A stretch of DNA of 64,000 nt from a virus (IMGVR_UViG_3300042731_004976:103993-167992); one strand, 5' to 3'; shown: positions 7,852 through 58,951, counted from the stretch's first letter. Notes: generated from the sequence alone by a model not told the origin. Program-made: numbers and translations.

Positions 7852-8031
7852 TGTCATGTCCCGCTGCCCCGTCTGTTTGAATCCCCAGGCATCATCCAAG
7901 AGCAAGTCCTCAGAGAGGGAACGCATGGAGCGCAACCTTGCTGCATTGAAACGCGAAGAGGAAGCGCTCCAGAAGAAGTTGCACGACAACTTGGTCAGGC
8001 AGCATCGGCTCGAAGCGGTGCTGAAGGACGC

Positions 8032-8060
8032 TTGACTATCCGTTCTCTTAGAGGTATAGC
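8032..8060 (+). promoter_or_regulatory. sigma70-type promoter
   Basis: TTGACT-N17-TATAGC. Confidence 0.6.
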
Positions 8061-8091
8061 AACGACTTTATGAACGAGAAAAGGATTTCGA

Positions 8092-8724
8092 ATGTCGCAG
8101 CATCGACGAGTACGTGACTTTGGCACCGATCCCAAGGCAAACCTCTTCCAGGCGGCTATTCCCGGAGGCCGAGGCATCGAGGCATCAGAGGCGCGAGGTC
8201 AGGTCGAGTTGGTGAACAGCACCCAATTGCCTTTTCAAGGCAGCGATGACCCGGCTTTGGCGGCTGCTGGTGTGGTGGTCGGGGGAGAGACGAACGGGAA
8301 TGACATGCGGAATGCGGGGAAGCCGCTCTTCATCGACGCAACGCTTCCCGCGGGTTGGAAGAAGGTCGGTACGGATCACGACATGTGGTCCAAGCTCGTA
8401 GACGAGAAGGGGCGTACTCGCGCCACAATGTTCTACAAGGCGGCGTTCTACGATCAGAGCGCGTTCATGGGTACGGTGGGCCGCTTCAACATTCAGCGGA
8501 AGTACATCGAGGGCAACGACAACACCTACGTGTTGGAGGTACGTGACTGCGAGGAGCCGATCTTCTCCGTCACCCGCGAGCTTCCAGGCAAGCAGAAGGA
8601 GCGCACTCGCGAGCAGTGGTCGGAGTGCGACGCGATCGAGAAGGAAGCGGCGGCTGTCTGTGAGAAGTGGCTCGTGGATCAGGGCTATCCCGAGTGGAAG
8701 GACCACTCGAAGTACTGGGACTGA
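8092..8724 (+). CDS. conserved phage hypothetical protein
   Basis: GIEASEARGQ...LPAGW...DHDMWS...FYKAAFYD. Confidence 0.7.
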   Translation: MSQHRRVRDFGTDPKANLFQAAIPGGRGIEASEARGQVELVNSTQLPFQGSDDPALAAAGVVVGGETNGNDMRNAGKPLFIDATLPAGWKKVGTDHDMWSKLVDEKGRTRATMFYKAAFYDQSAFMGTVGRFNIQRKYIEGNDNTYVLEVRDCEEPIFSVTRELPGKQKERTREQWSECDAIEKEAAAVCEKWLVDQGYPEWKDHSKYWD

Positions 8725-8727
8725 GAC

Positions 8728-9243
8728 GTGCTCAAGTACTTGGTAGGCGACGCGACGCGGCCCGTGGGTGGTGGTGAGAAGATCATCACCCATTGTTGCA
8801 ACGACCTCGGGCGTTGGGGATCGGGCTTCGTCGTGCCTCTCGGTCGGCTCTACCCGAGTGCGAAGTTCGCCTACCACCGCTGGTGTGAGGGGTTGGACGA
8901 TCCTTCCTACTCCGCGACGGGTCTCATGGGTTTGGGAGAGATCCAGTTCGTTCAGGTCGAACCGCACCTGTGGGTGGTCAACATCATCGGGCAGCATGGA
9001 GTGATCGATCGCACCCCTGCGGGAGAGGGGCCTCCCATTCGATACGAAGCGATTCGGCAGGGGTTCGCCAAGCTACGGGGTTTCGCAACGCTGCGGAGTG
9101 CGAGCGTCCACATGCCTCGGATGGGTGCGGGACTCGCGGGAGGGCAGTGGGAAGAGATCGAGAAGCTCATCAACGCGGAGCTACTTAGCGGGGGCTTGGA
9201 CGTCTTCGTTTACGACTTGCCTACGAAGGAGGCGAGCTTCTGA
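8728..9243 (+). CDS. macrodomain protein (Poa1p/TARG1/DarG-like ADP-ribose processing)
   Basis: YLVGDAT, IITHCCNDLGRWGSGF, MPRMGAGLAGGQW. Confidence 0.85.
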   Translation: MLKYLVGDATRPVGGGEKIITHCCNDLGRWGSGFVVPLGRLYPSAKFAYHRWCEGLDDPSYSATGLMGLGEIQFVQVEPHLWVVNIIGQHGVIDRTPAGEGPPIRYEAIRQGFAKLRGFATLRSASVHMPRMGAGLAGGQWEEIEKLINAELLSGGLDVFVYDLPTKEASF

Positions 9244-9244
9244 C

Positions 9245-9721
9245 ATGGGCTACTTCAGTAACAACGATGAAGGTTCGGCATACGAGGAACGCTACTGCTC
9301 TCGGTGCATCCACGGCGGGGAGGACTTGGAGTGTCCTGTGATCTTCGTTCACGCGATGTACGCCTACAAGGAGTGCGGCAAGGGTTCGAACGCGGAGCGC
9401 ATCCTCAACATACTGATCCCTCGTGCGAAGAACGGTGTGGGCAACGAGCAGTGCAAGATGTTTGTCGCGCGCACGGGTTCTGAGGAGGACGAAAGCGAAG
9501 ATGCTGCTGTGCTCCGGATCATCGAAACGGACAAGAGCATCGCCGAAGCGTTCGCTCGCTTCGTTGCGGAGCCTATGTCCGTCAAGGCGCATCTCACGGA
9601 TTGGGAGTTCAAGCTCGCATGCGAAGCTCCGATCGTCTTCGAGAAGTACAAGGGCTTCACGTGGAAGCAGCGCCGCAGTCTTCGTCAGATCGTGCAGAAG
9701 ATCATTAAAGGACAAGGGTGA
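9245..9721 (+). CDS. Cys-containing hypothetical protein
   Basis: YFSN..EG..Y...CSRC...CP...C motif. Confidence 0.55.
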   Translation: MGYFSNNDEGSAYEERYCSRCIHGGEDLECPVIFVHAMYAYKECGKGSNAERILNILIPRAKNGVGNEQCKMFVARTGSEEDESEDAAVLRIIETDKSIAEAFARFVAEPMSVKAHLTDWEFKLACEAPIVFEKYKGFTWKQRRSLRQIVQKIIKGQG

Positions 9722-10233
9722 TGGTTACGGACGGTCGCGAACTGGTCGAGATTCTAGACCGAGCCTTCAAGGGTTCTGTCTCGATTCCTTCTGGGGCGGG
9801 GTTGCCGCCGCGGCACTGGAAGTTGCGTCTCGAAGCGTACATGCACGAGATCGGTCACGGGGCCGTCCTCGGTTGGAAGCGCATTCCTCGGAAGCAAGAG
9901 AACCGCTTCCAGGACTTCGAGATGTTCGGTACGGAGATCGAACAGGCCTTATGGAACCTCACGGTACGTACAGCAAACATGCATGAGGTGAGGACTATTG
10001 CCACGGTGCTCGGGCTCAACCGCAAGTACGGTTGGGGGTTGCCTGAAGCACACTCGGTCTCTGTGGGCTTGGACAGCCTGTACAAGGGAGACGACAAGGG
10101 CTCGGTCAAAAAGCTCACCAGGAGGCAGCTACAGGCTCTCGTGGAGGCGGTGCCTCAACGTTCCGTGGCGAAGTACGTGAAGCGCTCTGAGACGATCATC
10201 TCGAACGTCGTCCAGCGGATGGCGCGTCTTTGA
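9718..10233 (+). CDS. HExxH-containing protein (possible metallopeptidase)
   Basis: AYMHEIGHG and a downstream HE. Confidence 0.45.
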   Translation: MMVTDGRELVEILDRAFKGSVSIPSGAGLPPRHWKLRLEAYMHEIGHGAVLGWKRIPRKQENRFQDFEMFGTEIEQALWNLTVRTANMHEVRTIATVLGLNRKYGWGLPEAHSVSVGLDSLYKGDDKGSVKKLTRRQLQALVEAVPQRSVAKYVKRSETIISNVVQRMARL

Positions 10234-10434
10234 GGTACTTGTAGGCGGCGTGTAGGCGTGCGTCGCTTCGGTACTTGCGGAAGGCTCGAACCGCAGGCCA
10301 CAGCTCATCGGGGATCTCTGCATAGGGGAGCTGCTCGACACGGAGGGACTCGGCCAGCTCGTGTGCGGAGGGAGTTTTCCGCATCTGGGCTGCTCGCCAA
10401 GCTAGGGCTGGGAAAACTTCCGAATAGCGAGGCA

Positions 10435-10860
10435 TCAGAAGTCGTTCGGGCGAAGATCGCTCTCACCCGTCAGGTATTCCAGGAGATCTACTCGTCCGCC
10501 GAACCCTGCGCGGATGGTCTTCCTCTTGAGTGCGTGGTGTGCGAAGTATCGATGCCAGCCGTCGAGGATGACTGGGATTGCGTAGACACGACCGCCTCCG
10601 CAGATGCAGTCGATCGAGATGGGAGCCTCCAGGTCTTCGGGGCTTTGCATGAGGTAGCGGATGCGCGCAGCATGCGTTTCCGCAGTCCACTTCTTGGGAG
10701 CGCTGTGTCCATCCGGAGTGTAGCGGGAAGGTTCCAGGGAGGTGCCTTCTTCCACCATACTCGGGTAAAAGCCAACGCCCCAGATGTCGTCCTCATCACA
10801 AGGACCGGCGCCGAAGCATTCGTCGAGGCGAGCAAGGATGATGTCGTAGACTGGATCTAC
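10435..10860 (-). CDS. ParB/Srx-like domain protein (start uncertain)
   Basis: PI-x-I...ILDGWHRY motif. Confidence 0.55.
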   Translation of the reverse strand, partial: VDPVYDIILARLDECFGAGPCDEDDIWGVGFYPSMVEEGTSLEPSRYTPDGHSAPKKWTAETHAARIRYLMQSPEDLEAPISIDCICGGGRVYAIPVILDGWHRYFAHHALKRKTIRAGFGGRVDLLEYLTGESDLRPNDF

Positions 10861-11123
10861 TTCACGGTCGCTTGCGGTTGGATCCAAAACATCGTCGCTA
10901 CCAGATACGCTCCCTTGAAGGGCGTTGGTTTGACGATCACTAAGCGCAGTCCGTTGTGCTCTCGCCATGTCGAGTCCGTGTCGAACGTATCCTTGCCCTT
11001 CTCCAGGGCTTCCGCAACGTGGAAGTCGGTGATGCTCTGTTCCTCCGCCTTGGCTTGCGCGTGACGGGTGAGTACGATTTTGTGCCTCCCGTAGCCCGGT
11101 ACGTCCTCGTAGAGGTACTTCAC
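10857..11123 (-). CDS. DUF4258-like small protein
   Basis: LTRHAQAKAEEQSIT...EALEKG...VATMF; GTGA overlap with NMNAT stop. Confidence 0.5.
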   Translation of the reverse strand: MKYLYEDVPGYGRHKIVLTRHAQAKAEEQSITDFHVAEALEKGKDTFDTDSTWREHNGLRLVIVKPTPFKGAYLVATMFWIQPQATVK

Positions 11124-12223
11124 GCACGCCCCTCGCGAACGTCCGTGGAGCTGATGTCCCATCGGCCTTTGACGGGGTAGAATAGGAAGTCCGAGTTCAA
11201 GGAGAGCGTCTCGTCGTTCAAGAGGTCTCGCATCGTGGTGTACCCCCGGTCCGGGATCTCTCGTCCTACGACGTAGAACCGTACTCTCTCTTCGACGAAG
11301 GGGGCCAGGTTCTCCTCGGGGGTCTTGTTGTCCCACGTCATGAGACGCAGCAGGGCGTCTGCACCGATGACGATGTGCTTCACGCCGGAGGCGATCTTGT
11401 CCTCATAGAGGGGTTGCCCTCTGGTGAAGATCACACTGTGTCCCTTGAGCATCTTCGCCCGCTGCAACATCTCGGGGACGGTGAGCGCTGGCTTGTGCGG
11501 AGGCTCTGCCTCGATGCTGAATAGCACCGGACGTCTGTGCTCTTCTTCGATCTGCTCGGCGATGCCGAAGTGCCCTTCGTGTGGCGGGTTGAACGCTCCG
11601 GGGAAGTGTGCGTACTCCGAAGCACGCCTGTGGCTCAGGTTGGTGAAGGGACGCAAGAAGAAGACGTCTCGAATGTCGATGGGGTCGCTCAGTTCGTACC
11701 AGTCGAAGATCTCTTGGGTGATGGGCACGAGAGGAAGACCAAGGGCGTTGCGTAGCGCGTTGAGTCCTAGAAGATCGCAGGTCTCTCCCTCGTCCTCACG
11801 TCCTGTGCTCTTGCTTTTGTTCAGCACGGCGTAGAGCAAAGTGCACTTGTCTTCGCTTACCGTTGCGATGTAGACCCGGTGATCCCCCTTGTGCTCCCGG
11901 GTGGTGCCGACGACGGCCGTCATGCCTACACCGATCGTCCTCTTGTTTCCCGGTTTCCACGCACGGCTGTATGCCTCCATGGCGAGCTGGATAGCCGTGG
12001 TCTCGGTGCATGCTCGTTCGGGCTCGAACCCTAGGAAGTCCGCTGTGTCCTCCGCCGCGTAGGGGAATGCTGCGCCCACGAGGAACTTGGAGCACCCGGG
12101 GACGTCCCACAGCAGCTTCTGGAGGCCTGCCCCGGCCCCCGTACAGACCACGTAGACCTGCGGGGGCTCGGGGAGGTCACGGATCTCCGTGACTGCGTCG
12201 ATGGTGTTCACTGGACCGCTCAC
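11120..12223 (-). CDS. CinA/PncC-like domain fused to HxGH nucleotidyltransferase (NMN/NaMN adenylyltransferase)
   Basis: VCTGAGAG...VPGCSKF N-domain; FPGAFNPPHEGH, IGAD, DISSTDVR; directly downstream of nadV. Confidence 0.8.
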   Translation of the reverse strand: MSGPVNTIDAVTEIRDLPEPPQVYVVCTGAGAGLQKLLWDVPGCSKFLVGAAFPYAAEDTADFLGFEPERACTETTAIQLAMEAYSRAWKPGNKRTIGVGMTAVVGTTREHKGDHRVYIATVSEDKCTLLYAVLNKSKSTGREDEGETCDLLGLNALRNALGLPLVPITQEIFDWYELSDPIDIRDVFFLRPFTNLSHRRASEYAHFPGAFNPPHEGHFGIAEQIEEEHRRPVLFSIEAEPPHKPALTVPEMLQRAKMLKGHSVIFTRGQPLYEDKIASGVKHIVIGADALLRLMTWDNKTPEENLAPFVEERVRFYVVGREIPDRGYTTMRDLLNDETLSLNSDFLFYPVKGRWDISSTDVREGRA

Positions 12224-13593
12224 GCGGTCTCCTTTGCCCTCTTGCGGACGTCGTCGAAGGTGAGGGTTCGGAGGATCTTGCCGTTCTCGTAGACGACCTC
12301 CAGTAGATCCCCGTGCTTGACCTCGGGAACGGTGCGGAGCTGCCCGCCCTCGCGAACGAGAGACATGCGACCCTTCTTGCTGACCTTGCCGTGGTCAGTA
12401 GCAGGATCCTTGAAGACCTCCACATCCTTGCCGGCAACGCGCGCCCAGGAGCACTTGAATGCGAACTTCTGGGTGTCCCGATCCATTTTCTGGAGCAGAG
12501 CCCCGCCGCATCCGAAGGCGATGTTCGAGGCCGAGTAGCCGTTGCTGAGCACGACTCGAAGGATCTCCTGGATCGAGTCCTCGTTCACGCCGTCGCCTTG
12601 GATGAGCCGGAACTCGGGAGGGAGCACCTTGTAGCCTTTGGTGTTCTTGGTCATGCCCACCTTGCGCTCCAAGATCTGAAGGCACTTGAGCACGACGTCC
12701 GGCGGGTTGCCCGAGTCCGGACGGATGATGAGCGTACCGCCCGACTCCTTGACCAGCTCACGCAGCTCTTCGCCCCAGAGATTTTCCACAGCGCTGAAGA
12801 TGTCCCACGAGTCGGACACGCAGGCGTACAGCTTACCCTCGCCTGCGTACTGCTTGACCATGTTCCGGTAGGCGTCGGCCTCGTGAGCCTTGCCCCACAT
12901 GGTCATCGTGGAGTGCTCGGCCGCGGGAATCGAGAAGCCTGCCATCTCACAGTCGTAGAAGTGGTTGGCGTAGCGCACTCCTTCGACCGTGTCCGATCCC
13001 ATGAAGTTCACGAGGTGGGCCATGCCTCCGATACCCGCAGCTTCCCGGGACGTCACGCCACGACCACCGAAGTCGTGCAGCTTGAAGTCGATCTCCGCGG
13101 CGGGATCGTCTGCGGACTCCACGAGAGCCTCCCAGATGATCCTTCGGATGTTGTGACTCTGCGTCGCAACCGTGATCGGGTACCAGAGGCGCACCATTTG
13201 GGTTTCGAGCCAGGACACGACCCAGAACAGCTCTGGGTCCGTGCTCTCGACGCTGAGCAGGATGTTCCGCGTGGGCACCACCAGCCCCTCGGGAACGGCG
13301 CGGATGCGTACGGGCAAGTAGCCGTTGTGCTTGGTGACGACTTTCATCCAACCCTCGCGATTGAAAGGCTCCCCGTGAGCCGCGAAGAACTCGGCCGCCT
13401 CGTTCACGTCCGCTGCGGTGATCGGCTTCGAGAGGTACTCGCGCATGAACCACTGGAGGCCGAAGAAGACGGTCTGCCCGTAGCGCCCGCCACGCGACTC
13501 GAAGTACGAGTACATCGCTTCGGTCTCCGGAGGGTACTGAAGCCAGTGGCTGGCCTTGTAGCTGTCGGTGTCGAGAATGAGGTTGAAGTCCAT
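12220..13593 (-). CDS. nadV: nicotinamide phosphoribosyltransferase
   Basis: LDTDSYKASH, LHDFGGRG, GSDT, SIPAAEHS, IRPDSG, IQGDG, FGCGGALLQ, DTQKFAFK. Confidence 0.95.
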   Translation of the reverse strand: MDFNLILDTDSYKASHWLQYPPETEAMYSYFESRGGRYGQTVFFGLQWFMREYLSKPITAADVNEAAEFFAAHGEPFNREGWMKVVTKHNGYLPVRIRAVPEGLVVPTRNILLSVESTDPELFWVVSWLETQMVRLWYPITVATQSHNIRRIIWEALVESADDPAAEIDFKLHDFGGRGVTSREAAGIGGMAHLVNFMGSDTVEGVRYANHFYDCEMAGFSIPAAEHSTMTMWGKAHEADAYRNMVKQYAGEGKLYACVSDSWDIFSAVENLWGEELRELVKESGGTLIIRPDSGNPPDVVLKCLQILERKVGMTKNTKGYKVLPPEFRLIQGDGVNEDSIQEILRVVLSNGYSASNIAFGCGGALLQKMDRDTQKFAFKCSWARVAGKDVEVFKDPATDHGKVSKKGRMSLVREGGQLRTVPEVKHGDLLEVVYENGKILRTLTFDDVRKRAKETA

Positions 13594-13606
13594 GATTCGG
13601 TTCCTT

Positions 13607-14311
13607 TCAGATCTCGAAGACGAGCCCGTTCTTCACGGCCTTGTCGTAGGCCCGCTTGTCGAAGCGGTAGAGTTGAGCGGGACGGTGACTCGTCCCCTGT
13701 TGCATCCCGTTCTCCACGAGGATGTTCATGGCGAGGATCTTCTTGCGGAAGTTCCGCTTGTCGATCTCACGCCCCAGGATCGTTTCGTACAGCTTGCGGA
13801 GCTGCCCGAGCGAGAATTCCTTCGGCAGGAGGTTGAAGCCGATCGGTTCGTACGTCAGCTTCCCCCTCAAGCGCTGTACGGCCGTGCTGAGGATCTTGTT
13901 GTGGTCGAAGGCCAGCTCGGCTTTCATCGCTTCGTCGAGGGGCATCCACTTTGCTTCGGCGGCGTCGCTGGCTCCTTCCACGAGCATGGAACGCACCAGC
14001 CCGAAGTGGGCCACGGTGATGACACGCCCCCGAGGATCTCGGTCCTTGTCGCTGAACGTGTAGAGCTGCTCCAAGTAGTCGACCGTGGCGCCGGTCTCCT
14101 CCTCCAGCTCACGACGTGCTGCGGCTTCGATGTCCGGGTCTTCGTCGATGTCTAGGAATCCGCCAGGTAGTGCCCACTGACCCTTGAAGGGCTCGCCGCC
14201 CCTCTGGATCAACAGCACGTTCAGCGAGGGCTCTAAGTAGGACTGGTGGAGACCGAAGAGCACGATATCGGCTGTTACGCTCGGTCGCGGGTACTTGTAG
14301 GTGTGAGCCAT
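13607..14311 (-). CDS. nrtR: NrtR-family Nudix/winged-helix transcriptional regulator
   Basis: WALPGGF, AARRELEEETG, EQLYTF..RDPRGR, LAFDH, C-terminal DKRNFRKK...RPAQLY. Confidence 0.9.
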   Translation of the reverse strand: MAHTYKYPRPSVTADIVLFGLHQSYLEPSLNVLLIQRGGEPFKGQWALPGGFLDIDEDPDIEAAARRELEEETGATVDYLEQLYTFSDKDRDPRGRVITVAHFGLVRSMLVEGASDAAEAKWMPLDEAMKAELAFDHNKILSTAVQRLRGKLTYEPIGFNLLPKEFSLGQLRKLYETILGREIDKRNFRKKILAMNILVENGMQQGTSHRPAQLYRFDKRAYDKAVKNGLVFEI

Positions 14312-14375
14312 GGGGTAATAATCACACTAACTTAGTGTTCTGTCAACACAAAAGTTCGTGTGCTCCTAACCCTAA
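14310..14375. promoter_or_regulatory. three tandem NrtR-type operators overlapping the nrtR promoter
   Basis: 21-bp GT-N7-AC boxes at 14310-14330, 14332-14352, 14355-14375; minus-strand TTGACA(14346-14341)-N17-GATTAT-N6-ATG. Confidence 0.7.
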
Positions 14376-14477
14376 GTAATCATGGGTCTCTTTCGCCTCT
14401 TCCCCCAGGCAGGTCCTTCCGATACGCTCGCTGCTTCCAGGGCCCGAGAGGGCCCCCTAGAGACGAAGGAGCTGAGA

Positions 14478-15527
14478 ATGGAACAACGGACGCTGCGCCC
14501 CACGGTCCCGGCCGCGGAGGCGATTTTGGGCAAGTACTTCCCCGTGCTCGACAACGGGTTCATCGCCCTGAAGGACTACATGGGGTGCGATGAGGGGATC
14601 GAGGAGGCGGCTCGCCTCTCGTACCAAGGAGGCACGAGACAGACGAGCGAGACACGGGGGCTGGTTCGATACCTACGCCGCTTGAGGCATACGAGTCCGA
14701 GCGAGATGGCGGAGCTGAAGTTCCACGTATCTATGCCGATCTTCGTGGCGCGCCAGTGGGTCAGGCATCGTACGGCCTCCCTCAATGAAGTCAGCGCGAG
14801 GTACTCGCTGCTTCCCATGATCTTCTACACGCCGAAGAAGGAAAACTTCCTGCCGCAAGCGAAGAACAACAAGCAGGGTCGAGAGGACGGCGCCTCGTTC
14901 GAAGACGAGGGGTTGTACGAGCGTACGGTCATCGAGTGGAACAACGAGAGGAAGCGTTCGAGCGGTCTCTACGAGAACCTTGCTGCGGACGGGGTTGCGC
15001 GTGAGCTGGCTCGCATCGACTTGCCCTTGTCGACGTACACCCAGTGGTACTGGAAGGTCGACCTGCACAACCTGCTGCACTTCCTAACGTTGCGAGCCGA
15101 CGAGCACGCTCAGTGGGAGATCCGTCAATACGCCAACGTCATCGTGGGCATGGTGAAGCGCCTCGCTCCCCTGACGTACCAGGCGTGGATCGACTACGAG
15201 CACATGAGCGCTCGTTTCTCCCGCATGGAGATGGAGGTGCTTCAGGAGCTGGTGTCAGTTCTCACACAGGAAGAGGATGGGCAAGCGGGTGTGGACACGG
15301 CTGCGGGGTCCCCAACGTCGGGGAACTTCATCTCGCACGAAGAACTCGTGAAGCGCATCGGTTCGAAGCGTGAAGTTCAGGAGTTTTACGCGAAGCTGAC
15401 GAAGCGCTACGTGCGTCCCGGCTTCGACATTTCGGAAGCGGATGCCAAGCCTCCGGAGTGGTTCGAGGAACGCATGGCCAACGCGACTCCGAAGATCGAT
15501 GCAGCTCCCAAGGGTGTTGCTACGTGA
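14478..15527 (+). CDS. thyX: FAD-dependent thymidylate synthase
   Basis: AARLSY, HTSPSE, PIFVARQWVRHRTASLNEVSARY, RELAR..LP, HAQWEIR; SD AAGGAG before 14478 (14382 is an alternative start). Confidence 0.95.
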   Translation: MEQRTLRPTVPAAEAILGKYFPVLDNGFIALKDYMGCDEGIEEAARLSYQGGTRQTSETRGLVRYLRRLRHTSPSEMAELKFHVSMPIFVARQWVRHRTASLNEVSARYSLLPMIFYTPKKENFLPQAKNNKQGREDGASFEDEGLYERTVIEWNNERKRSSGLYENLAADGVARELARIDLPLSTYTQWYWKVDLHNLLHFLTLRADEHAQWEIRQYANVIVGMVKRLAPLTYQAWIDYEHMSARFSRMEMEVLQELVSVLTQEEDGQAGVDTAAGSPTSGNFISHEELVKRIGSKREVQEFYAKLTKRYVRPGFDISEADAKPPEWFEERMANATPKIDAAPKGVAT

Positions 15528-16036
15528 ACCCGGTTCCTACGGTGGACCTCGATATTGAGATCGTGCACATCGATGCACGCTCTCGTCAGATCACGTCGGT
15601 TCTGGCAGTCCCGCTCTACAGGAACCTTCGAGCTTTTGTGGAGCGGCAGGGCTGGCGTTTGGCGAAAGAGCAGTGGGAGGCGTACCGAGTGCTCACGGAG
15701 CACTTCTGCCTGGAACTGAATCGTACGGACGAGGGGTTCTTGTTTACAGGCGCTCCTTCTTTCACGGTGCCCGAGTTGGGGGAGGCGTTCTTCAACTACC
15801 ATACGGACAAAGCGTTCTTGGAGAGTTTCGACCCCGTGTACCTCGCTGGTGTAGGTAAGGGTATCGCGAGAGAGGTTCAGAGGGAGATCGAGCGCGTGCA
15901 GCGCACGCTCAGTCCTATCAAGGAGTACCGCCTCTTCCTGCCCCCGTTCCAGCCTCCTCTCTTGGCAGGGGACTCGTTGGACGGGCTCTGGTTGGGGAGG
16001 GAGCTGATACTCCAGCGAAGCCGCGAGTCCTCGTGA
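15524..16036 (+). CDS. truncated gp23-like capsid paralogue
   Basis: IDARSRQI vs gp23 IEAKSRQL; GIAREVQREI vs TEIMLEINREV. Confidence 0.5.
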   Translation: MNPVPTVDLDIEIVHIDARSRQITSVLAVPLYRNLRAFVERQGWRLAKEQWEAYRVLTEHFCLELNRTDEGFLFTGAPSFTVPELGEAFFNYHTDKAFLESFDPVYLAGVGKGIAREVQREIERVQRTLSPIKEYRLFLPPFQPPLLAGDSLDGLWLGRELILQRSRESS

Positions 16037-16040
16037 TTCC

Positions 16041-16069
16041 TTGACAATCGCAGCCCTACCTAATAGGGT
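16041..16069 (+). promoter_or_regulatory. sigma70-type promoter, leaderless
   Basis: TTGACA-N17-TAGGGT-N6-ATG(16076). Confidence 0.75.
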
Positions 16070-16075
16070 TGCCGG

Positions 16076-16381
16076 ATGGCTAAGCTGTCCGCAGAGGTTC
16101 TGGAAGAGGGTCGTGCCCTGATTCGGCAGAAGAACTTGGATGGGTTCTTGGCTTGGGTCGATCGTCAAAGGGTGGCTATCGACATGGAGGTCGTACGAGA
16201 TGCGTACGAGAAGTGCTTCGAGTACGACGACGTGGATAAGGCGCTGCGCCTGTTCGAAGCCATCTTCCCGAAGGCGGATCCTGCCGCAGATCTGCTCTTA
16301 GGCTTTTCCCGTTTGGCTCTTCGGATTCTCCTGGTCTTGGGAGTAATCGGGGGTCTCATCTATTTGATCCGGAATCTCTGA
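16076..16381 (+). CDS. membrane-anchored protein
   Basis: C-terminal hydrophobic helix. Confidence 0.6.
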   Translation: MAKLSAEVLEEGRALIRQKNLDGFLAWVDRQRVAIDMEVVRDAYEKCFEYDDVDKALRLFEAIFPKADPAADLLLGFSRLALRILLVLGVIGGLIYLIRNL

Positions 16382-18119: not shown

Positions 18120-18505
18120 TGATGGAGATCTGCAAGAAGTGCGGCAAGCGTCCGGTAGGTTTAGGTTTGGCTTCCCTCGCGAAGCGCTGTGCCGAGTGCT
18201 ATGCGGGAGCGAAGGAGGGCCTCGTCATGGTTTGCTTCGAGGGCGACGTGTCCGTACTCGATCAGATTCGTTCGAGCGGGCGGCGAGGTATCCTTCGATG
18301 ACGACCGCGGAGATACGAGGGTTCTTCGATAGGATTCGGAAGAAGTGGCCTCCCGAAGAATTCGATCTGACAATCATCGGTCCTCGTACCGATGGTGGCT
18401 ACGTCGTCACTATCCGGCGTACGCGCAGTTTCGCAGATATACATCGATTGGAGGCTTCTAGCTATCGGGGCGTCTTGCTGAAAGCGCTGGGTGCTTCTGG
18501 AGGGT

Positions 18506-19330
18506 ATGATCGTGCCTAAGCGGGTCGTTGTAGTCGTCAAACGCAGCTCGTGGTCTCAGCGTGTGTCCTCCGGGGAACCACTTCCGGCCGGTTGGAAGCG
18601 TAAGGCGTTAGCAAGCCACAAGCAGCAGCAGAGGATCAGAGATCGAGTCCTTGACCTGATCCGTGGCTTTGGTGTGAAGCCTTGGATCGTTGAAGGCGCA
18701 GAGACTGCTTTCAACGCGCGAGGTGCGGACCTTGTGGTGTCTGTTGGAGGTGACGGTACTTTGCTTTCAGCGAGCCACTACGTTGGCAAGGAACCATTGC
18801 TCGGCATCAACAACGACCCGGGACGGAGCGAGGGACACTTCTGTGTCGATACCAGCGATGACCTCAGCCGCACGTTGGAGCAGGCGTTGAAAGATCCTTG
18901 CACGCACAGTGTGACTCGCATGCGTGTCTCCGTAGGAAGACGGGTGGTGGCAGATCGAGTTCTCAATGAAGCTCTCTTCAGCCACACGTGTCCCGCAGCC
19001 ATGACGCGCTTCCAACTCGGGAGCTACAAGTACGCTTGTTCTGGGGTGTGGGTAGGAACGGGTGCCGGCTCTACGGGTGCGCTGGCCTCTGCCGGGGGCG
19101 AGGCGATGCCGTTGTCTGCACACAAGCTGCAAGCCGTCATTCGAGAACCCTTCAAGGAATACGATGGCAACGTCATCCGCTACCAGAGTCGATCGATTCG
19201 TCTCACGAGCCTTACTGACGATGCGACACTCTACCTGGACGGACCGTTCCTCCGCGTACCTGTGGGTCTGGAAGACGTCGTCGTGTTCGATCGATCTCCG
19301 TCTCCTCTGAACCTGGTGATGAACCCATGA
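18506..19330 (+). CDS. nadK: NAD kinase
   Basis: VSVGGDGTLL, LLGIN, VLNEA, GTGAGSTG..SAGG. Confidence 0.85.
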   Translation: MIVPKRVVVVVKRSSWSQRVSSGEPLPAGWKRKALASHKQQQRIRDRVLDLIRGFGVKPWIVEGAETAFNARGADLVVSVGGDGTLLSASHYVGKEPLLGINNDPGRSEGHFCVDTSDDLSRTLEQALKDPCTHSVTRMRVSVGRRVVADRVLNEALFSHTCPAAMTRFQLGSYKYACSGVWVGTGAGSTGALASAGGEAMPLSAHKLQAVIREPFKEYDGNVIRYQSRSIRLTSLTDDATLYLDGPFLRVPVGLEDVVVFDRSPSPLNLVMNP

Positions 19331-21155: not shown

Positions 21156-21857
21156 GACGCGAGCCACCTCCCGATCCTATCGAGCTAGAACCTCGTACGA
21201 CAGGGGACGCGGTTTGGGGTGTCGTACTTGTCGTGTTTGCTGTTCTCGGCGTGCTTGCTCTCATAGGCATGGTTGCGGTGGCCGCCTTTCTTCCGACTCC
21301 GTGATGCTTACCGGAACGCCTTGCCCCGAGTGCCTGAGCGGAGATCTCGTCTTCGTCGTGGTGTGGGGCGACACGGCTTGCCGGCGTTGCGGTCAGAAGG
21401 TCTCAGAACGTTTGACCCGCAAGGAGATCCGGGCGTGCATGAAGGAACGTCGTAGGTTGGCTGCGGAGGAAGCTGCGAAGGAAGAGGACTCTTGACCATC
21501 GCTTTTCTTTACGGTAGCATTCTGTTCCTATGTATCGGTACGGGTTACGTTCCGGTTTTGACTCTGACGGTTCGGGAGCTGCACACGTGAAGAAAGAGGT
21601 GGGGATCGAAGAGAGTGCCGAAATCCAGATCGATGGCCCCCTCTTCGTGGCGTTTCTCTTTATCTTGATCTTTTCTTTCGGGGCGCTGCTGTTTTCCGTG
21701 TTCACCCTGTGGCAGATAGGGAAGGTCGAGAAGATGCTGGAAGAGCATCACGTACAGGGACGCTGTCCGTGATCCGTTGGCGTCCAGACGTACCTTACTG
21801 CGAGTGCGTCCGTCGACACTTTGAAAGCTGCGGCGCGTACCGCAGAAGGGATATACC

Positions 21858-31970: not shown

Positions 31971-32435
31971 TCATGGTGGTCCCCAGACTCCCTCGACAGG
32001 GGTGACTCGGGCAAGCACTTCATTGATCTCGCTCTCGACCGCATCGAGGGACTTCGTGTGGTCCTCGGGATAGTACGAGACGTAGAGCCGACCAGCGTTC
32101 CGCCAGAACTTCCCACCGAAGCCGAAGACGCCGCAGAACCGAAACTCGGTGGCCGAGTGCTCCTTCTCCAGGAAGGAGTGGATGAAGTACTTGCGGGCGC
32201 CCTCACCGTCGTAGGCGCTGGCGAACAAGACGAGGATGCTCCAACACGCGCTGTAGAGAGAAGCATCGTGCGGGTAGGGTTCGGGACGTAGGTCGCTGAG
32301 GTGCTTCTCACGCACCGAAGCCGAGCGCTCGAAGAAGAGGTCGGTGTCCATGCGCGCTCGCTTGAGACTCTTGAAGACCTTGACCCAGGAGGCGTACAGC
32401 TCGGGGGGCAGTCCCGGGATCTCAGGAATCGCCAT
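31971..32435 (-). CDS. conserved phage hypothetical protein
   Basis: EFRFCGVFGFGGKFWRN...VSYYPED. Confidence 0.6.
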   Translation of the reverse strand: MAIPEIPGLPPELYASWVKVFKSLKRARMDTDLFFERSASVREKHLSDLRPEPYPHDASLYSACWSILVLFASAYDGEGARKYFIHSFLEKEHSATEFRFCGVFGFGGKFWRNAGRLYVSYYPEDHTKSLDAVESEINEVLARVTPVEGVWGPP

Positions 32436-32649
32436 CGGTCAGCATCTCCCGAGGACCGACTTTGAAGGGAATCACGCCGCGCTTCCACCGGATGTCGCAG
32501 TCTTCGCATGTGAATACGAGCTTGGTAAGATCTTCGGAGAATTCGTTCCCTCCGTCGACCCCTATCTCCTCGCCACATTGCGGGCATTCGTCCGAGTAGT
32601 AGAGGCTACGGAGATGGGCGCAGACGCGAACTTCTTCCGGCATGCCGCG

Positions 32650-38413: not shown

Positions 38414-38617
38414 ATGAAGCGCCGGAAGAAGGGAGGAGCACCGCGTAAAGCGCCTGGTGGACTCACCAAGGTGCTTTTCCTTCGAGTAGACCGGGCCCTT
38501 CACAATCGAATCGAGCAGGAGCGCGCGCGCAAGAGCGAGTTGCTGGGGGTGACCCTGTCTCAAGCAGACCTGGTTCGTATGCTTCTGGTAGAAGGTCTCG
38601 ACAGAGCCGGGTTCTAG
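38414..38617 (+). CDS. ribbon-helix-helix DNA-binding protein
   Basis: VLFLRVD strand, then helix, then SQADLVRMLL. Confidence 0.6.
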   Translation: MKRRKKGGAPRKAPGGLTKVLFLRVDRALHNRIEQERARKSELLGVTLSQADLVRMLLVEGLDRAGF

Positions 38618-39024
38618 CTTGATGTGCTGGAATTGATCCAGTTCGGGTTTCGTACGCGGCTTGCAACTAGCGTGAACTCGTCTCGTGCGAGGTGGGAAGC
38701 GTCGCCTGCGTAGCTCTTACGGGCAGAGGCGAGGAGAAGGGCGGCCACTTGAAGTTCTAGCTCCTTCTGTTCCAGTTGCTCCTTGAGCTTCGTGACGTCG
38801 TTCGCCTCGGAGTCCGTAGCGCTCAAGATCTCGACTCGGCGCCCGTTTCCCTTCGGCAGGGCCATGTCCTGACACATCCGTGCGTGATGCTTGTCGTCGA
38901 CCCGCACTGCATCGTACCCAGATCCTTGAAGCCACTTTTGTAGGAGGTAGGCAATAGTCGACTTTCCAGACGCCACGGCTCCGGTGATTTCAATGTGGAC
39001 AACAGGATTCTCGGGGATGTGCAT
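38614..39024 (-). CDS. P-loop containing protein
   Basis: ITGAVASGKST; promoter TTGACA-N17-TAGCAT-N6-ATG. Confidence 0.55.
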   Translation of the reverse strand: MHIPENPVVHIEITGAVASGKSTIAYLLQKWLQGSGYDAVRVDDKHHARMCQDMALPKGNGRRVEILSATDSEANDVTKLKEQLEQKELELQVAALLLASARKSYAGDASHLARDEFTLVASRVRNPNWINSSTSS

Positions 39025-49816: not shown

Positions 49817-50326
49817 GGGAGAAGCCTACCACGGCGGTCGCGTCAGAAGCCAGAGCGCGAGTCCGTGGTAGTCCTCCCAGGATTTCTGTTGATCTCTCTG
49901 TACTTCCTCGTCGTCCGGCTCTGCGAACTGAGAGACGAAGCGCACGAGAAACCCGGTCTCTTCCCCCAGAGGCGTTGGATCTCGATCCCGTTTGCCGTAC
50001 AGCATCCGGTTCGGCCAGCGACCCCCTCGCTCAAATCCCCAGTCCACGGCTCCTCGGCGGACGCAGAGGACGTCGATCGACTCCCGGAACCCTGCGTCAG
50101 GGCCTCCTAGAAAAGCGCACAGCGCCTCAGCTCGGGCCTCCGTGGGGAAAGGATCAGAGATGAACTCGTGTCTGGCTGTCTCGCTGGTGCGTCCCATACA
50201 CGAGAGACGCCGAGCGACTCACGCATCTGACACAGGGTCCGCAGATTTCTGAGGGGCTCCCGCCTGCTCCAGGCGGTGCCGTTCGAGCCGCTCGCTCGAA
50301 GGGGTCGAGGTCGCAGTCCCCGATCT

Positions 50327-50596
50327 TCATCGTACCGGTTTCCACTCGGAGACCGCAGCTTCGAGCTTGTCGATCGCGAAGTAGACCTGCTCGCGTTCCT
50401 TGAGCGAATCGAGCGAGCGGCTCTCGCTCAAACTCCAGAGGCGCGAGGCAGACTCTTTGGCGTCGGCCAACGCCTTCTGGAGCATGGCGATGTGACGACG
50501 CTCGGGAGAGACTGCTTCCTCGATCGGCTTCTTCTTGCCCACGCCTCTCGTGAGCTTTCTGAATTCGTCGATGTCTAGACCTGGGATTTTCGGCAC
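50327..50596 (-). CDS. protein with divergent leader
   Basis: MPKIPGLDIDEFRKLTRGVGKKKPIEEA; SD GGAG; follows leader protein 5. Confidence 0.55.
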   Translation of the reverse strand: MPKIPGLDIDEFRKLTRGVGKKKPIEEAVSPERRHIAMLQKALADAKESASRLWSLSESRSLDSLKEREQVYFAIDKLEAAVSEWKPVR

Positions 50597-50909: not shown

Positions 50910-52269
50910 GGGAGAAAGCCTATCACCACGAGATCGGCAGGCGTAGTACCTTTTCCGAACCCCCTGTTTCCCAGGTACTTCCCTTACGGATCTTTGCGGT
51001 GCAGCCAAGCCCACAAGAAGCCCGCCATCGGAATTTCGGGAACGATGACGCACATCATCATGAAGCGCAGTCTCTCCTCGGGAGAGGCAGGAGGCTTCAT
51101 TGAGCCCTTCAGGAGCGCGTCGTTCCAACGCCCCTCGTCATGCAGGTGGAGCGTCACAAGGCCCAAGAGAAACCCCAGGCCACGTTCGAAGATGAAGAAG
51201 GAGAGCGCTAGGTCGATCATTTCCAACCCAGTAGCTCTTCTGCTTCGCCGATCAGCTCCTTGGCAGCGGCGTCGATCGCAGCCTTCACTTCAGGGAGGTA
51301 CTTCACAGCAACAATCTTGTCGTGCAAAAGGATGTGGGGGTCAATCGTTAAGCCCAAGCCAGTCACGCCAGCAATAGGAACGGCAGGATCTCCAGCGAAG
51401 TACAGAAGCCCGCAGTCGTAGTGGATCTGCCCACCGTCGCCTTCCTTGAGATCGAGACTCAGGTGCAGCATTGGTATTGGGGACCCGATGTCGTGGTAGA
51501 AGCTTCGGATCGCTTCGTCCAAGCGTGCGTTCAGCTTGTCCAGGCGCTCCAACGGAGTCAGACGTCGCACAGGCACGTTTATCACTTTTGGCTTTCTGGA
51601 GGCGCTGGCCACCCAGGGTGGTCCTGTCGCTTCCTTGAATGGTTCTCTCTCAGCTTTGAGAGAGCTACGCGGACCATTCGGTGCGCTTCGATGCGATAGG
51701 TGAGGTCGTGGATCCATTCCATCTCAGCATCGATCCCGTTGACGAGATGGTCGCGATTGAAATGCTCGGACCACGGAGGGATCGAGGCGATGGTCTCCCA
51801 TCCATCTTCGCCGTCCATGGTGAGCCGCAGTGTCATGACCGAAGCCTCCTCTGGCATCTCCTCGCACGGTCGAGTCTTGTCGCTAAACGCCTTCCACAAG
51901 TCACCGTCCGGTTCGACGTGGTCAATGATCTTGCAGCGCGTGCACTGGCGCAGTGTGCTCCCCGGGAGACCCACGCGAAAGGGAGTCGCTTTCCATTGGT
52001 GCTTCTGTGCTTTCGCACGAGGCGCGCGTCTTTCGGCAATGAGCCGGTGCAGGGTGGCTAACGGAGACGAGTCGCCTCCCTGCCTTTGAGCGAGCAGGAG
52101 GTCCATGATCTCGTTCATCTCTTTCTGGAGCGCTCGCTGCTGCGTCTGCAAGAGGTCCGCTACCAGACCTTTGCCCTCCCCCTCGCGAGCGCAGGGCACG
52201 CAGTTCTCGTTCTCGGGCACCCCGTGTTCGCACGTTCTCATCGAGCCAGTCTAGCGGCTGCGCCTGTGC

Positions 52270-57343: not shown

Positions 57344-58000
57344 ATGTCGCCCAAGTATCCCAGAACCCCGCATCTTCCCTACAGCCCGGGAGGCTCGAAG
57401 GACGACCGTCGACTCTCGTCCGTGGATACTCTCCTTCGGATCCCGCTCGTCATCACGGAGAAGATGGACGGGTCCAACGTGTGTCTGGAACGAGACGGAT
57501 GCTTTGCTCGAAGTCACGCTTCCGCTCCCAAGCATCCGAGCTTCGATGCGTTCAAGGCGTACCATGCTTCGGTGAAGGGCCTGATCGGAGGGGACATTCA
57601 GATCTTCGGTGAGTGGCTCTACGCGCGACACAGCATCGCGTACACAAACCTCCCGAGCTACTTCCTGGTGTTTGGAGTCCGAGATGTCGCCAGCGGCTCG
57701 TGGGCGGAGTGGGAGGAGGTCGAAGCCTGGGCCGATTGCCTTCGGACTTTCACCGTGCCTCGGCTAGAAGTTGGTCGGTTCGAGAGCGCTTCAGACCTGC
57801 AAGAGGCGATCGAAGAGCATGCTCGGGCGAAGGGACTGCATAGAGAGCGTGAGGGCGTGGTCGTGCGTTGGGAGGAGTCGTTCGACACTGAGTGCTTCGG
57901 AGACGCGGTAGCGAAATGGGTGCGAGAAGATCATGTCCAGACCTCCGACCACTGGTCCCATCAGGCTCTTGTTCGGAACGGGCTTCTTCTCGGGGGTTAG
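57344..58000 (+). CDS. ATP-dependent RNA ligase family protein
   Basis: KYPRTPHL, TEKMDGSN, FGEW, FGV, EGVVVR, AKWVR. Confidence 0.85.
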   Translation: MSPKYPRTPHLPYSPGGSKDDRRLSSVDTLLRIPLVITEKMDGSNVCLERDGCFARSHASAPKHPSFDAFKAYHASVKGLIGGDIQIFGEWLYARHSIAYTNLPSYFLVFGVRDVASGSWAEWEEVEAWADCLRTFTVPRLEVGRFESASDLQEAIEEHARAKGLHREREGVVVRWEESFDTECFGDAVAKWVREDHVQTSDHWSHQALVRNGLLLGG

Positions 58001-58492
58001 GCGACGAGGCTCTCGATTTGAAAGCACCAGCCTCGCCACCTGACATCGAGTTGCCAGCCTCCGTTGGGGAAGGTGTACCACGCCTTGTGGATCCTCCAAT
58101 CCTTCATCTTGGGAGCCGCGAAGGGGGTCAAGATCAAGGACGTTGGTAGGACTCTCATGACGCGGCCTTTACGGCTTCGGCGATAGCCCAGCACGTGGGA
58201 CATTCCTGCGACGCGCGCCACTGATCGTTCACCCCGTCGAGGTAGCCTGTGGGAAAGGATCCTGCTTCGGAGACTGTTCCGCAAGCCGAACAGATCAGTG
58301 CATCGTGCGGGTACTGTGGCAAGCGCGGTGTTCCTACCGAGCCTGCGATTCCATTCCGCACCAGACGTCCCATGAGGCAACCGCGTGCATGAGTGAAGCG
58401 TAAGGTACCGTCCTTGAGGAGGTCGGCAGGCGCGTTACATGAGGGGCAGTGGCTGAGGTCCTTCATCTTGTGTAGCGACGATACCACGAGGC

Positions 58493-58951
58493 TCAGGGTT
58501 CTGGTGGGAAGCGGGGCTCCGGAGGCGGAGGCAAGGGCGGAGGCGGAGGAACGGGAGAGGTGTCCTCATCTCCGTTGAACGGTACGTATTGGATGGGTTC
58601 GGGATACGGCGGCGGGTCGAGAGGGATGAGGTCTTCTTCTTCTTCGTCGCGCAGAGGAGGGCCTTCGAACGGTTCGAGATCCTCTTCTACGGTCTCCCCC
58701 ATGCGCATCTCGACATCCGTCTCTTCGATAGGGTCCTCGGTGCTCGCGTCCTCTTCGTCCTCGTCGTCTCCGATGGACATTCCCACCGCAATGATCAAGC
58801 AGCACACGCCCATCACGAGACTGACGATTCGCCCTCCCAGACCGACCTTCGGGATCTTGGCTTCCTTGATCTCGAAGCCTCCTCCAATGCCTCCGGTAAG
58901 GATGAGCAGAGCCCCGAGTAGAGCAAGGATCGTTTCGATGGCGATGGTCAT
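58493..58951 (-). CDS. two-TM membrane protein with acidic/Pro-rich tail
   Basis: Two hydrophobic helices; upstream TGGTAAACT-N7-ATG. Confidence 0.6.
   Translation of the reverse strand: MTIAIETILALLGALLILTGGIGGGFEIKEAKIPKVGLGGRIVSLVMGVCCLIIAVGMSIGDDEDEEDASTEDPIEETDVEMRMGETVEEDLEPFEGPPLRDEEEEDLIPLDPPPYPEPIQYVPFNGDEDTSPVPPPPPLPPPPEPRFPPEP

Follow-up and report, generated by a model that had tools for sequence, protein, structure and literature searches.

A phage nadV operon headed by an NrtR-type repressor gene with three tandem predicted operators

Here, we analysed 64,000 nucleotides of viral DNA (hereafter the window), the final 64 kb of the 167,992-bp IMG/VR virus record IMGVR_UViG_3300042731_004976 (103993-167992), and focused on a minus-strand operon encoding an NrtR-type repressor (nrtR), the nicotinamide phosphoribosyltransferase NadV (Nampt) and a nucleotide adenylyltransferase (gene 3). 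We consider it probable that this T4-type phage carries an nrtR-nadV-adenylyltransferase operon which is repressed by its own NrtR, is released by ADP-ribose and rebuilds nicotinamide adenine dinucleotide (NAD+) in the manner of the phage NAD+ reconstitution pathway NARP2. The record is linear and about 80% complete according to CheckV, and the GC content is even across the window (0.57-0.62). As the earlier note on this DNA had assumed, the contig is a phage and not a bacterial chromosome, since a T4 gp23-type major capsid protein (PF07068, 241 bits) is encoded in the genome. No GenBank phage matched 10 kb of the sequence in a megablast search, and isolated phages have capsid proteins no more than 35% identical to this one, so these comparisons point to no host. 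The best nadV match was Myxococcus phage Mx1 (56%), which has neither a capsid-level match nor nrtR.

The families of the three genes, together with their spacing, bear out the tightly packed minus-strand operon of the earlier note (Table 1). nrtR and nadV are separated by a gap of 13 bp, and nadV and gene 3 share a 4-bp GTGA overlap in which the GTG start of gene 3 lies over the nadV stop. The assignment of nadV was supported by NCBIfam PRK09198 (622 bits, cut-off 405) and by phrog_448 (520 bits). The left border of the operon had been placed at 10857, which belongs to an out-of-frame open reading frame (ORF) at 10857-11336; the true end is the stop of gene 3 at 11120, where convergent plus-strand genes meet the operon. 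A terminator-like site was looked for 3′ of gene 3 and none was found. Two minus-strand ORFs were rejected as operon members: 10857-11336, which lies out of frame over gene 3, and 10435-11127. Neither has a family match, the convergent plus-strand gene 10258-11064 outscores each of them, and probably neither is a gene.

Table 1. Coordinates of the operon, its predicted control elements and the divergent gene, in window positions
Feature	Coordinates	Strand	Evidence and remarks
gene 3, PncC-like/NadD-like fusion	11120..12223	-	367 aa; Pfam CTP_transf_like 37 bits and CinA 25.3 bits
nadV, nicotinamide phosphoribosyltransferase (Nampt)	12220..13593	-	457 aa; Pfam NAMPT_N and NAPRTase
nrtR	13607..14311	-	234 aa, operon gene 1; Pfam PF00293 and PF21906
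NrtR box 1, ATGGGGT-N7-ACACTAA	14310..14330	.	predicted; 16.8 bits, rank 2 in genome
sigma70-type promoter TTGACA-17-GATTAT, upstream TG	14318..14346	-	promoter scan; 10/12 matches
NrtR box 2, TTAGTGT-N7-ACACAAA	14332..14352	.	predicted; 23.5 bits, rank 1 in genome
NrtR box 3, TTCGTGT-N7-ACCCTAA	14355..14375	.	predicted; 11.5 bits, rank 3 in genome
thyX, FAD-dependent thymidylate synthase	14478..15527	+	Pfam Thy1 173 bits; TIGR02170 180 bits

Upstream of nrtR lie three 21-bp GT-N7-AC boxes, whose sequences and spacing we read as the earlier note had given them; their starts are 22 and 23 bp apart, and the consensus of the six half-sites is TTAGTGT. When all 21-mers of the 168-kb genome were scanned with an operator matrix built from 67 sites out of bacterial loci, the three boxes took the first three ranks and the next best site scored 7.1 bits, while random genomes of equal composition gave 0.2 matches at ≥11.5 bits. 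The bacterial training sites were picked by similarity to the phage-derived consensus; their independent value lies in their position before nrtR or NAD operons and in the many perfect palindromes among them. Only one other 21-mer in the 168 kb, an intragenic one, lies within 3 mismatches of TTAGTGT-N7-ACACTAA, and neither the matrix nor the consensus search gave another credible NrtR site in the genome. Scanning the viral loci for palindromes in general gave too much noise to be usable.

We then compared the positions of the boxes with those of the promoter. The -35 hexamer TTGACA (14346-14341) lies inside the spacer of box 2 and the -10 hexamer GATTAT (14323-14318) inside the spacer of box 1, which also covers the first two bases of the nrtR ATG. 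The sequence and the promoter scan thus agree with the previous observation that the boxes overlap the -35, the -10 and the start codon of nrtR. This was the only sigma70-like promoter detected in 10300-14700 (4.4 kb). Between the end of the -10 and the ATG lie 6 nt, and a Shine-Dalgarno sequence is absent, indicating that the nrtR mRNA is leaderless. At seven other genes of the phage the arrangement TTGACA-17-TAnnnT-start recurs, again with no Shine-Dalgarno sequence, where about 0.1 such cases would be expected by chance from the background rate of the scan. All eight share a TTGACA-like -35, a spacer of 17-18 nt, a TAnnnT -10 and 6-9 nt to the start codon, which looks like a class of host-polymerase promoters in this phage, probably acting early. 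The members in the window are nrtR itself (13607-14311), 21530-21772, 32422-32643, 38614-39024 and 51582-52241, and those upstream of it lie at about 11025, 11481 and 47276 of the 168-kb record.

The boxes were also found in relatives. The nearest NrtRs, 72%, 68% and 63% identical, are encoded on contigs L016, L017 and L018, respectively. L017 is a related phage with several genes in common with the window, among them the divergent thyX, nadV (about 85% identity) and the fusion gene, and L018 is a 377-kb contig with phage-like genes. Relative to the nrtR ATG, GT-N7-AC boxes stand at -41 and -19 in all three, just like boxes 2 and 1 of the window, and in L016 and L017 the TTGACA in the spacer of the upstream box and the leaderless start are kept as well. 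Box 3 (-64) has no counterpart in L016 or L017, and the stretch of L018 inspected shows two boxes only. Around its nrtR (8001-16188; also L019), L018 carries nrtR-orf111-nadV followed by genes for a 325-aa protein of no assigned family, an adenylosuccinate-synthetase-like protein (472 aa), a faintly protein-kinase-like protein (299 aa) and a 567-aa protein.

Bacterial NrtR homologues with 56-58% identity lie in pncB-(nadE)-nrtR-pncA operons, upstream of which we found TTAGTGT-N7-ACACTAA, a perfect palindrome in L021, or TTAGTGT-N7-ACACTAT. Closer still are L027 and L029, two bacterial-looking contigs from metagenome assemblies (GC 0.69-0.70) with beta-lactamase, sulfatase and PQQ genes as neighbours. 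They carry an nrtR-nadV-fusion operon of identical order, with 60-61% identity to the window for NrtR, 68% for NadV and 55-57% for the N-domain of the fusion protein. Their operator pair, TTTGTGT-N7-ACACTAA-g-TTAGTGT-N7-AC.., has the half-sites and the 1-nt gap of boxes 2 and 1 of the window. Because the same operon with the same abutting pair of boxes occurs on these contigs, the phage carries a bacterial-type cassette that includes its predicted switch, ready-made from bacteria. Of 85 bacterial loci, 64 had one or more sites that depart from the consensus by at most 3 mismatches, and in the loci examined the sites immediately precede either nrtR or the gene that opens the operon. The consensus TTAGTGT-N7-ACACTAA is common to relatives from Planctomycetota, Myxococcota, Verrucomicrobiota, Bacteroidota and other phyla. 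Given that phage relatives and bacterial loci carry the same boxes, the assignment of these predicted operators is well supported.

Over the 85 bacterial loci, the largest tandem array was a single site in 44 loci, a pair in 19 and a triplet in 1. Box 3 is therefore an uncommon extra, and the two-box core came with the cassette. The sole three-box locus (L032 3948-4015), in a metagenome-assembled genome of Planctomycetales, has its boxes immediately ahead of nrtR, with spacings of 22 and 25 bp between their starts, and is a natural comparator for the three boxes of the phage.

The protein itself has the two domains of the NrtR family, a Nudix-like domain at residues 32-141 (PF00293, 79.7 bits) and an NrtR-type winged-helix DNA-binding domain at residues 158-217 (PF21906 NrtR_WHD, 95 bits), which upholds the identity proposed before. 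Sequence matches in the PDB were S. oneidensis NrtR (3GZ5, E 8e-37, aligned along its length) and B. thetaiotaomicron AraR (5BS6, E 1e-39). The Nudix box reads GX5EX9REUXEEXGU, that is, with a 2-aa insert and with the metal-binding REUXEE intact, and most of the 120 nearest NrtR homologues keep the full canonical signature. Characterised NrtRs bind 21-bp GT-N7-AC palindromes, with functional tandem sites at prs-nadV, and ADP-ribose is the best inhibitor of their DNA binding (Rodionov et al. 2008, PMC2330246). ADP-ribose is likewise the presumed effector here, on the grounds of family homology and the NAD gene context.

The product of gene 3 gave an AlphaFold2 model with a pLDDT (predicted local distance difference test) of 93.7. 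Its N-terminal half (about residues 1-190) has a CinA/PncC fold (Foldseek, 2A9S TMt 0.74 over 168 columns, also 6MR3 and 5KOL), and its C-terminal half resembles NadD adenylyltransferase structures (Foldseek TMt about 0.55; 1KAM profile E 1.9e-8) and carries the GxFxPxHxGH and ISSTxxR motifs. For the N-domain, PF02464 (CinA) was weak (25.3 bits, cut-off 23.5), an 8-sequence profile found no sequence match in the PDB and a 71-sequence profile reached 2A9S at E 0.008 only, so that the fold was settled by Foldseek. The earlier note had called this protein a nicotinamide mononucleotide (NMN) adenylyltransferase (NMNAT); it is predicted to be a nucleotide adenylyltransferase of a different type, as the AlphaFold2 and Foldseek results point to a NadD fold with a PncC-like N-domain and not to the NadM-Nudix arrangement of phage KVP40. 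The catalytic dyad of PncC is Ser31/Lys63 in A. tumefaciens numbering (PMC5384747). With the motif register set by eye (G43-x-S45 and Y55 on G46-x-S48 and Y58), which is not a residue-level structural alignment, the Lys63 position is Thr60 in gene 3 and also Thr in the consensus of the 71-member family, and Ser31 corresponds to Val26 or Thr28, at a position that varies in the family. Because the Lys position holds Thr and the Ser position is not conserved, we infer that the N-domain is a non-catalytic nucleotide-binding module, perhaps handing NMN to the transferase. At least 218 representative clusters belong to this fusion family at E <1e-30, beside nadV in both bacteria and phages, and the family has no PHROG or NCBIfam equivalog.

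These features suggest how the circuit might work. A host-type sigma70 promoter would give one leaderless mRNA of the three genes, and NrtR dimers bound to boxes 2 and 1 would deny RNA polymerase access to the -35 and the -10/start site, so that the operon would repress itself. Cooperative binding at box 3, which lies two helical turns farther upstream, would probably make repression tighter. If NrtR behaves like its characterised homologues, it would leave the DNA in response to ADP-ribose, which arises when NAD+ is cleaved. NadV would then convert nicotinamide and phosphoribosyl pyrophosphate (PRPP) to NMN, and the adenylyltransferase domain would join NMN and AMP from ATP to give NAD+. On balance, NAD+ rebuilding would be low while NAD+ is intact and rise when it is cleaved, and regulation would spare the PRPP cost and the NAD+ over-production reported for unregulated NARP2. 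Of this model, the gene identities, the operators, their overlap with the promoter and their conservation in relatives are read from the sequences; the binding of NrtR to the boxes, its response to ADP-ribose and the timing in infection are predictions. Published accounts of SIR2 and TIR NADases describe the splitting of NAD+ to ADP-ribose and nicotinamide. The ADP-ribose could thus come from such host enzymes or from the phage's own ART-PolyVal protein and ADP-ribosylglycohydrolase, and counter-defence is a plausible purpose of the operon, one of several.

Several observations weigh against this interpretation. The best PDB match of the repressor is, marginally, AraR, an arabinose-sensing member of the family, and not an ADP-ribose-sensing NrtR, so the choice of effector rests on gene context. 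The score for the equivalog of ADP-ribose-responsive repressors (NCBIfam NF050029) is 188 bits for a curated cut-off of 400, which places the protein in the wider NrtR family, outside that narrow group. NadD-type enzymes usually prefer nicotinic acid mononucleotide (NaMN), and NMN rather than NaMN is the predicted substrate of gene 3. Since the REUXEE residues are intact, NrtR may hydrolyse its own inducer, or may mainly be an enzyme. Moreover, nrtR heads the operon that it would repress, and a genome entering the cell brings no phage NrtR with it, so the promoter should be on at genome entry until NrtR accumulates, unless a host NrtR cross-binds the same consensus. The earlier proposal that the phage senses defence and then switches the operon on was therefore too simple, and rather than a plain off-to-on switch we would describe the circuit as negative autoregulation that ADP-ribose can override.

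An alternative to which we give a real, if minority, chance keeps the same switch and assigns it another purpose, namely to refuel the NAD(P) that the phage itself consumes, with ADP-ribose arising from the phage's own ADP-ribosylation cycle and not from host NADases. In 168-kb-record coordinates, all outside the window, the genome encodes an ART-PolyVal domain protein (100780-100947, +; 35 bits, above its cut-off), an ADP-ribosylglycohydrolase (57823-58680, +; 203 bits) and a second Nudix protein (50175-50522), which amounts to an ADP-ribose write/erase set of the phage's own. The first two together would yield nicotinamide and free ADP-ribose. PF03496, the family of ADP-ribosylating exotoxins, was absent from the phage genome. 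In both the window phage and L017 the operon is divergent from thyX, whose product requires a reduced pyridine nucleotide; there is a weak NAD-kinase-like gene at 18491-19330 of the window; and more than 1100 GenBank phage records contain nadV, most without a known link to defence. On the other side, the NARP2 genes of KVP40 abolished Thoeris and DSR2 defence (Osterman et al. 2024, 10.1101/2024.02.11.579819), so the operon would by its chemistry bring a counter-defence benefit whatever its original purpose, and the two purposes are compatible. We regard it as unlikely that NrtR acts mainly in trans, reprogramming the pncB, nadE and pncA operons of the host, or that a host NrtR silences the phage operon until NAD+ is cleaved. 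The sharing of TTAGTGT-N7-ACACTAA by relatives of many phyla would allow it; yet such action would add to the cis-acting model and not replace it.

It is quite unlikely, in our judgement, that the regulation is a mere passenger, a bacterial operon captured whole whose repressor and operators are immaterial in a short lytic cycle, so that expression is effectively constitutive and early. The identical operon and operator pair on bacterial-looking contigs, the absence of phage NrtR at entry and the scarcity of nrtR among nadV phages (11 records compared with 1114; Mx1 has nadV and an NMNAT and no nrtR) all fit such a passenger. However, three diverged contigs of phage or phage-like character, with NrtR identities of only 63-72%, keep the operators in place. 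In the phage, the cassette has been remodelled, with hexamers inside the operators, a leaderless mRNA as at 7 other genes and an added third box, and NrtR entered phages at least four times. It seems improbable that the Nudix domain serves primarily as an enzyme or as a binder of ADP-ribose-derived molecules, ADP-ribose not being the inducer. The REUXEE and its flanking G and E are kept and most of the 120 nearest homologues are canonical; an intact signature has been linked to ADP-ribose pyrophosphatase activity, and NrtRs that have it may both regulate and hydrolyse (Rodionov et al., PMC2330246). Activity and repression can coexist, as suggested in that work, and the conservation of the winged-helix domain and of the operators argues for repression.

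To place the phage NrtRs, we built a quick maximum-likelihood tree of 100 NrtRs. The clade of the window NrtR (SH-aLRT 98) consists of nine phage rows together with L027 and L029, all nadV-linked, and over the whole tree the phage NrtRs have at least 4 separate origins. In IMG/VR, 14 phage contigs, mostly of 200-500 kb and with GC contents of 0.25-0.71, carry NrtR relatives; nadV directly follows nrtR in 5 of the 14, and the full three-gene order occurs in 2. Close to nrtR or nadV, several of these contigs have their own variants of the GT-N7-AC palindrome, such as a pair with 24-bp spacing in L009. In GenBank phages, nadV occurs in 1114 records and a full-length NrtR-like gene in 11. One of the latter is gp273 of Bacillus phage G, a full-length NrtR-like protein filed as a MutT/NUDIX hydrolase (38% identity over residues 6-217), and PHROGs gives the same label to the NrtR family (phrog_1198). 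In phage G (NC_023719.1 200123-206236; L022), gp273 heads gp275 (isochorismatase/pncA-like), gp277 (nicotinate phosphoribosyltransferase/pncB-like), gp280 (KptA) and gp281 (nadD-like).

NrtR regulons with tandem sites at nadV operons are already known in bacteria, for example nrtR-prs-nadV of S. oneidensis (tandem sites), nadM-nadV of Synechocystis and pncB-nrtR-pncA of Blastopirellula (PMC2330246). The phage operon shares with them the Nudix and winged-helix repressor, the 21-bp GT-N7-AC palindromes, the tandem operators over the nadV promoter and the autoregulation at gene level, and its operator consensus is identical to that of the bacterial relatives that we found. In contrast, it is phage-encoded and leaderless, its promoter hexamers lie within the operator spacers, it has three operators (found in 1 of 85 bacterial loci), and its partner enzyme is the PncC-like/NadD-like fusion instead of Prs or NadM. 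L027 and L029 have the same three genes in the same order, the abutting operator pair and an NrtR of the same clade, and differ in having two boxes and not three, a Shine-Dalgarno leader before nrtR and ordinary bacterial neighbours. Thus, the earlier idea of a regulated NARP2 in a phage stands as regards the operon and its operators, and it does not stand as something specific to phages. Like phage G, the window phage has a full-length NrtR-like protein at the head of an NAD gene cluster, which in that isolated jumbo phage belongs to the nicotinate (Preiss-Handler) branch, whereas here it includes Nampt.

Phage Nampt with NMNAT is likewise known, as NARP2 of Vibrio phage KVP40, which uses up PRPP, over-produces NAD+ and is toxic in E. 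coli, and for which no regulator was described (Osterman et al. 2024, 10.1101/2024.02.11.579819). The window operon also encodes a Nampt and a nucleotide adenylyltransferase, together predicted to make NAD+ from nicotinamide, PRPP and ATP, and differs in having nrtR. The KVP40 enzyme is a NadM-type NMNAT fused to a Nudix ADP-ribose pyrophosphatase. Gene 3, in contrast, has a NadD fold with a PncC-like N-domain and no fused Nudix domain, and the Nudix fold sits in the repressor. In the literature searched, neither a phage-encoded NrtR nor a regulated NARP has been described. What is new here is a NARP2-like enzyme pair under a predicted NrtR switch in a T4-type phage, the leaderless design with the promoter inside the operators, the third operator and the PncC-like/NadD-like partner.

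Accounts of NARP1, 2 and 3 to date present them as sets of enzymes with no regulator. If the phage operon is wired to an ADP-ribose-type sensor, it would show how the cost of NARP2 can be avoided, and would be an instance in which a virus senses a metabolic by-product, whether this stems from host immunity or from the NAD+ consumption of the virus itself. The operator/promoter region, at 70 bp, is compact enough for direct electrophoretic mobility shift assays and reporter work. Two annotation gaps also became apparent: phage NrtR-like repressors are filed as MutT/NUDIX hydrolases, and a large, uncharacterised PncC-like/NadD-like fusion family partners nadV in bacteria and phages. More speculatively, some large phages might carry a closed-loop circuit that senses NAD+ damage, an extension which we offer tentatively. 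Nampt would be off until NAD+ is cleaved by SIR2/TIR defence or by phage ADP-ribosylation; a catalytic NrtR would destroy the inducer, feed ribose-5-phosphate to PRPP and reset the switch; a dead PncC-like domain would capture NMN for the fused adenylyltransferase; and box 3 would tune the threshold. Such a circuit, if it exists, would be the first regulated counter-defence in a phage to respond to the metabolic product of immunity.

The divergent gene thyX most likely starts at 14478, judging from an AAGGAG Shine-Dalgarno sequence and a homologue of 339 aa in L017. This leaves 14312-14477 between the two genes and puts box 3 at a distance of 102 bp from where thyX begins. Co-regulation of thyX through box 3 is possible; the promoter scan gave no plus-strand sigma70-like promoter for thyX, and the thyX 5′ region did not fold better than shuffled sequences (z 0.82). 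At about 349 aa, ThyX has N- and C-terminal extensions relative to the 211-position TIGR02170 model. The NAD-kinase-like gene mentioned above (+, 279 aa) matches the NAD-kinase N-terminal domain weakly (29.2 bits, cut-off 25.5). It lies 4 kb from the NAD operon and thyX, and may extend the module to NADP.

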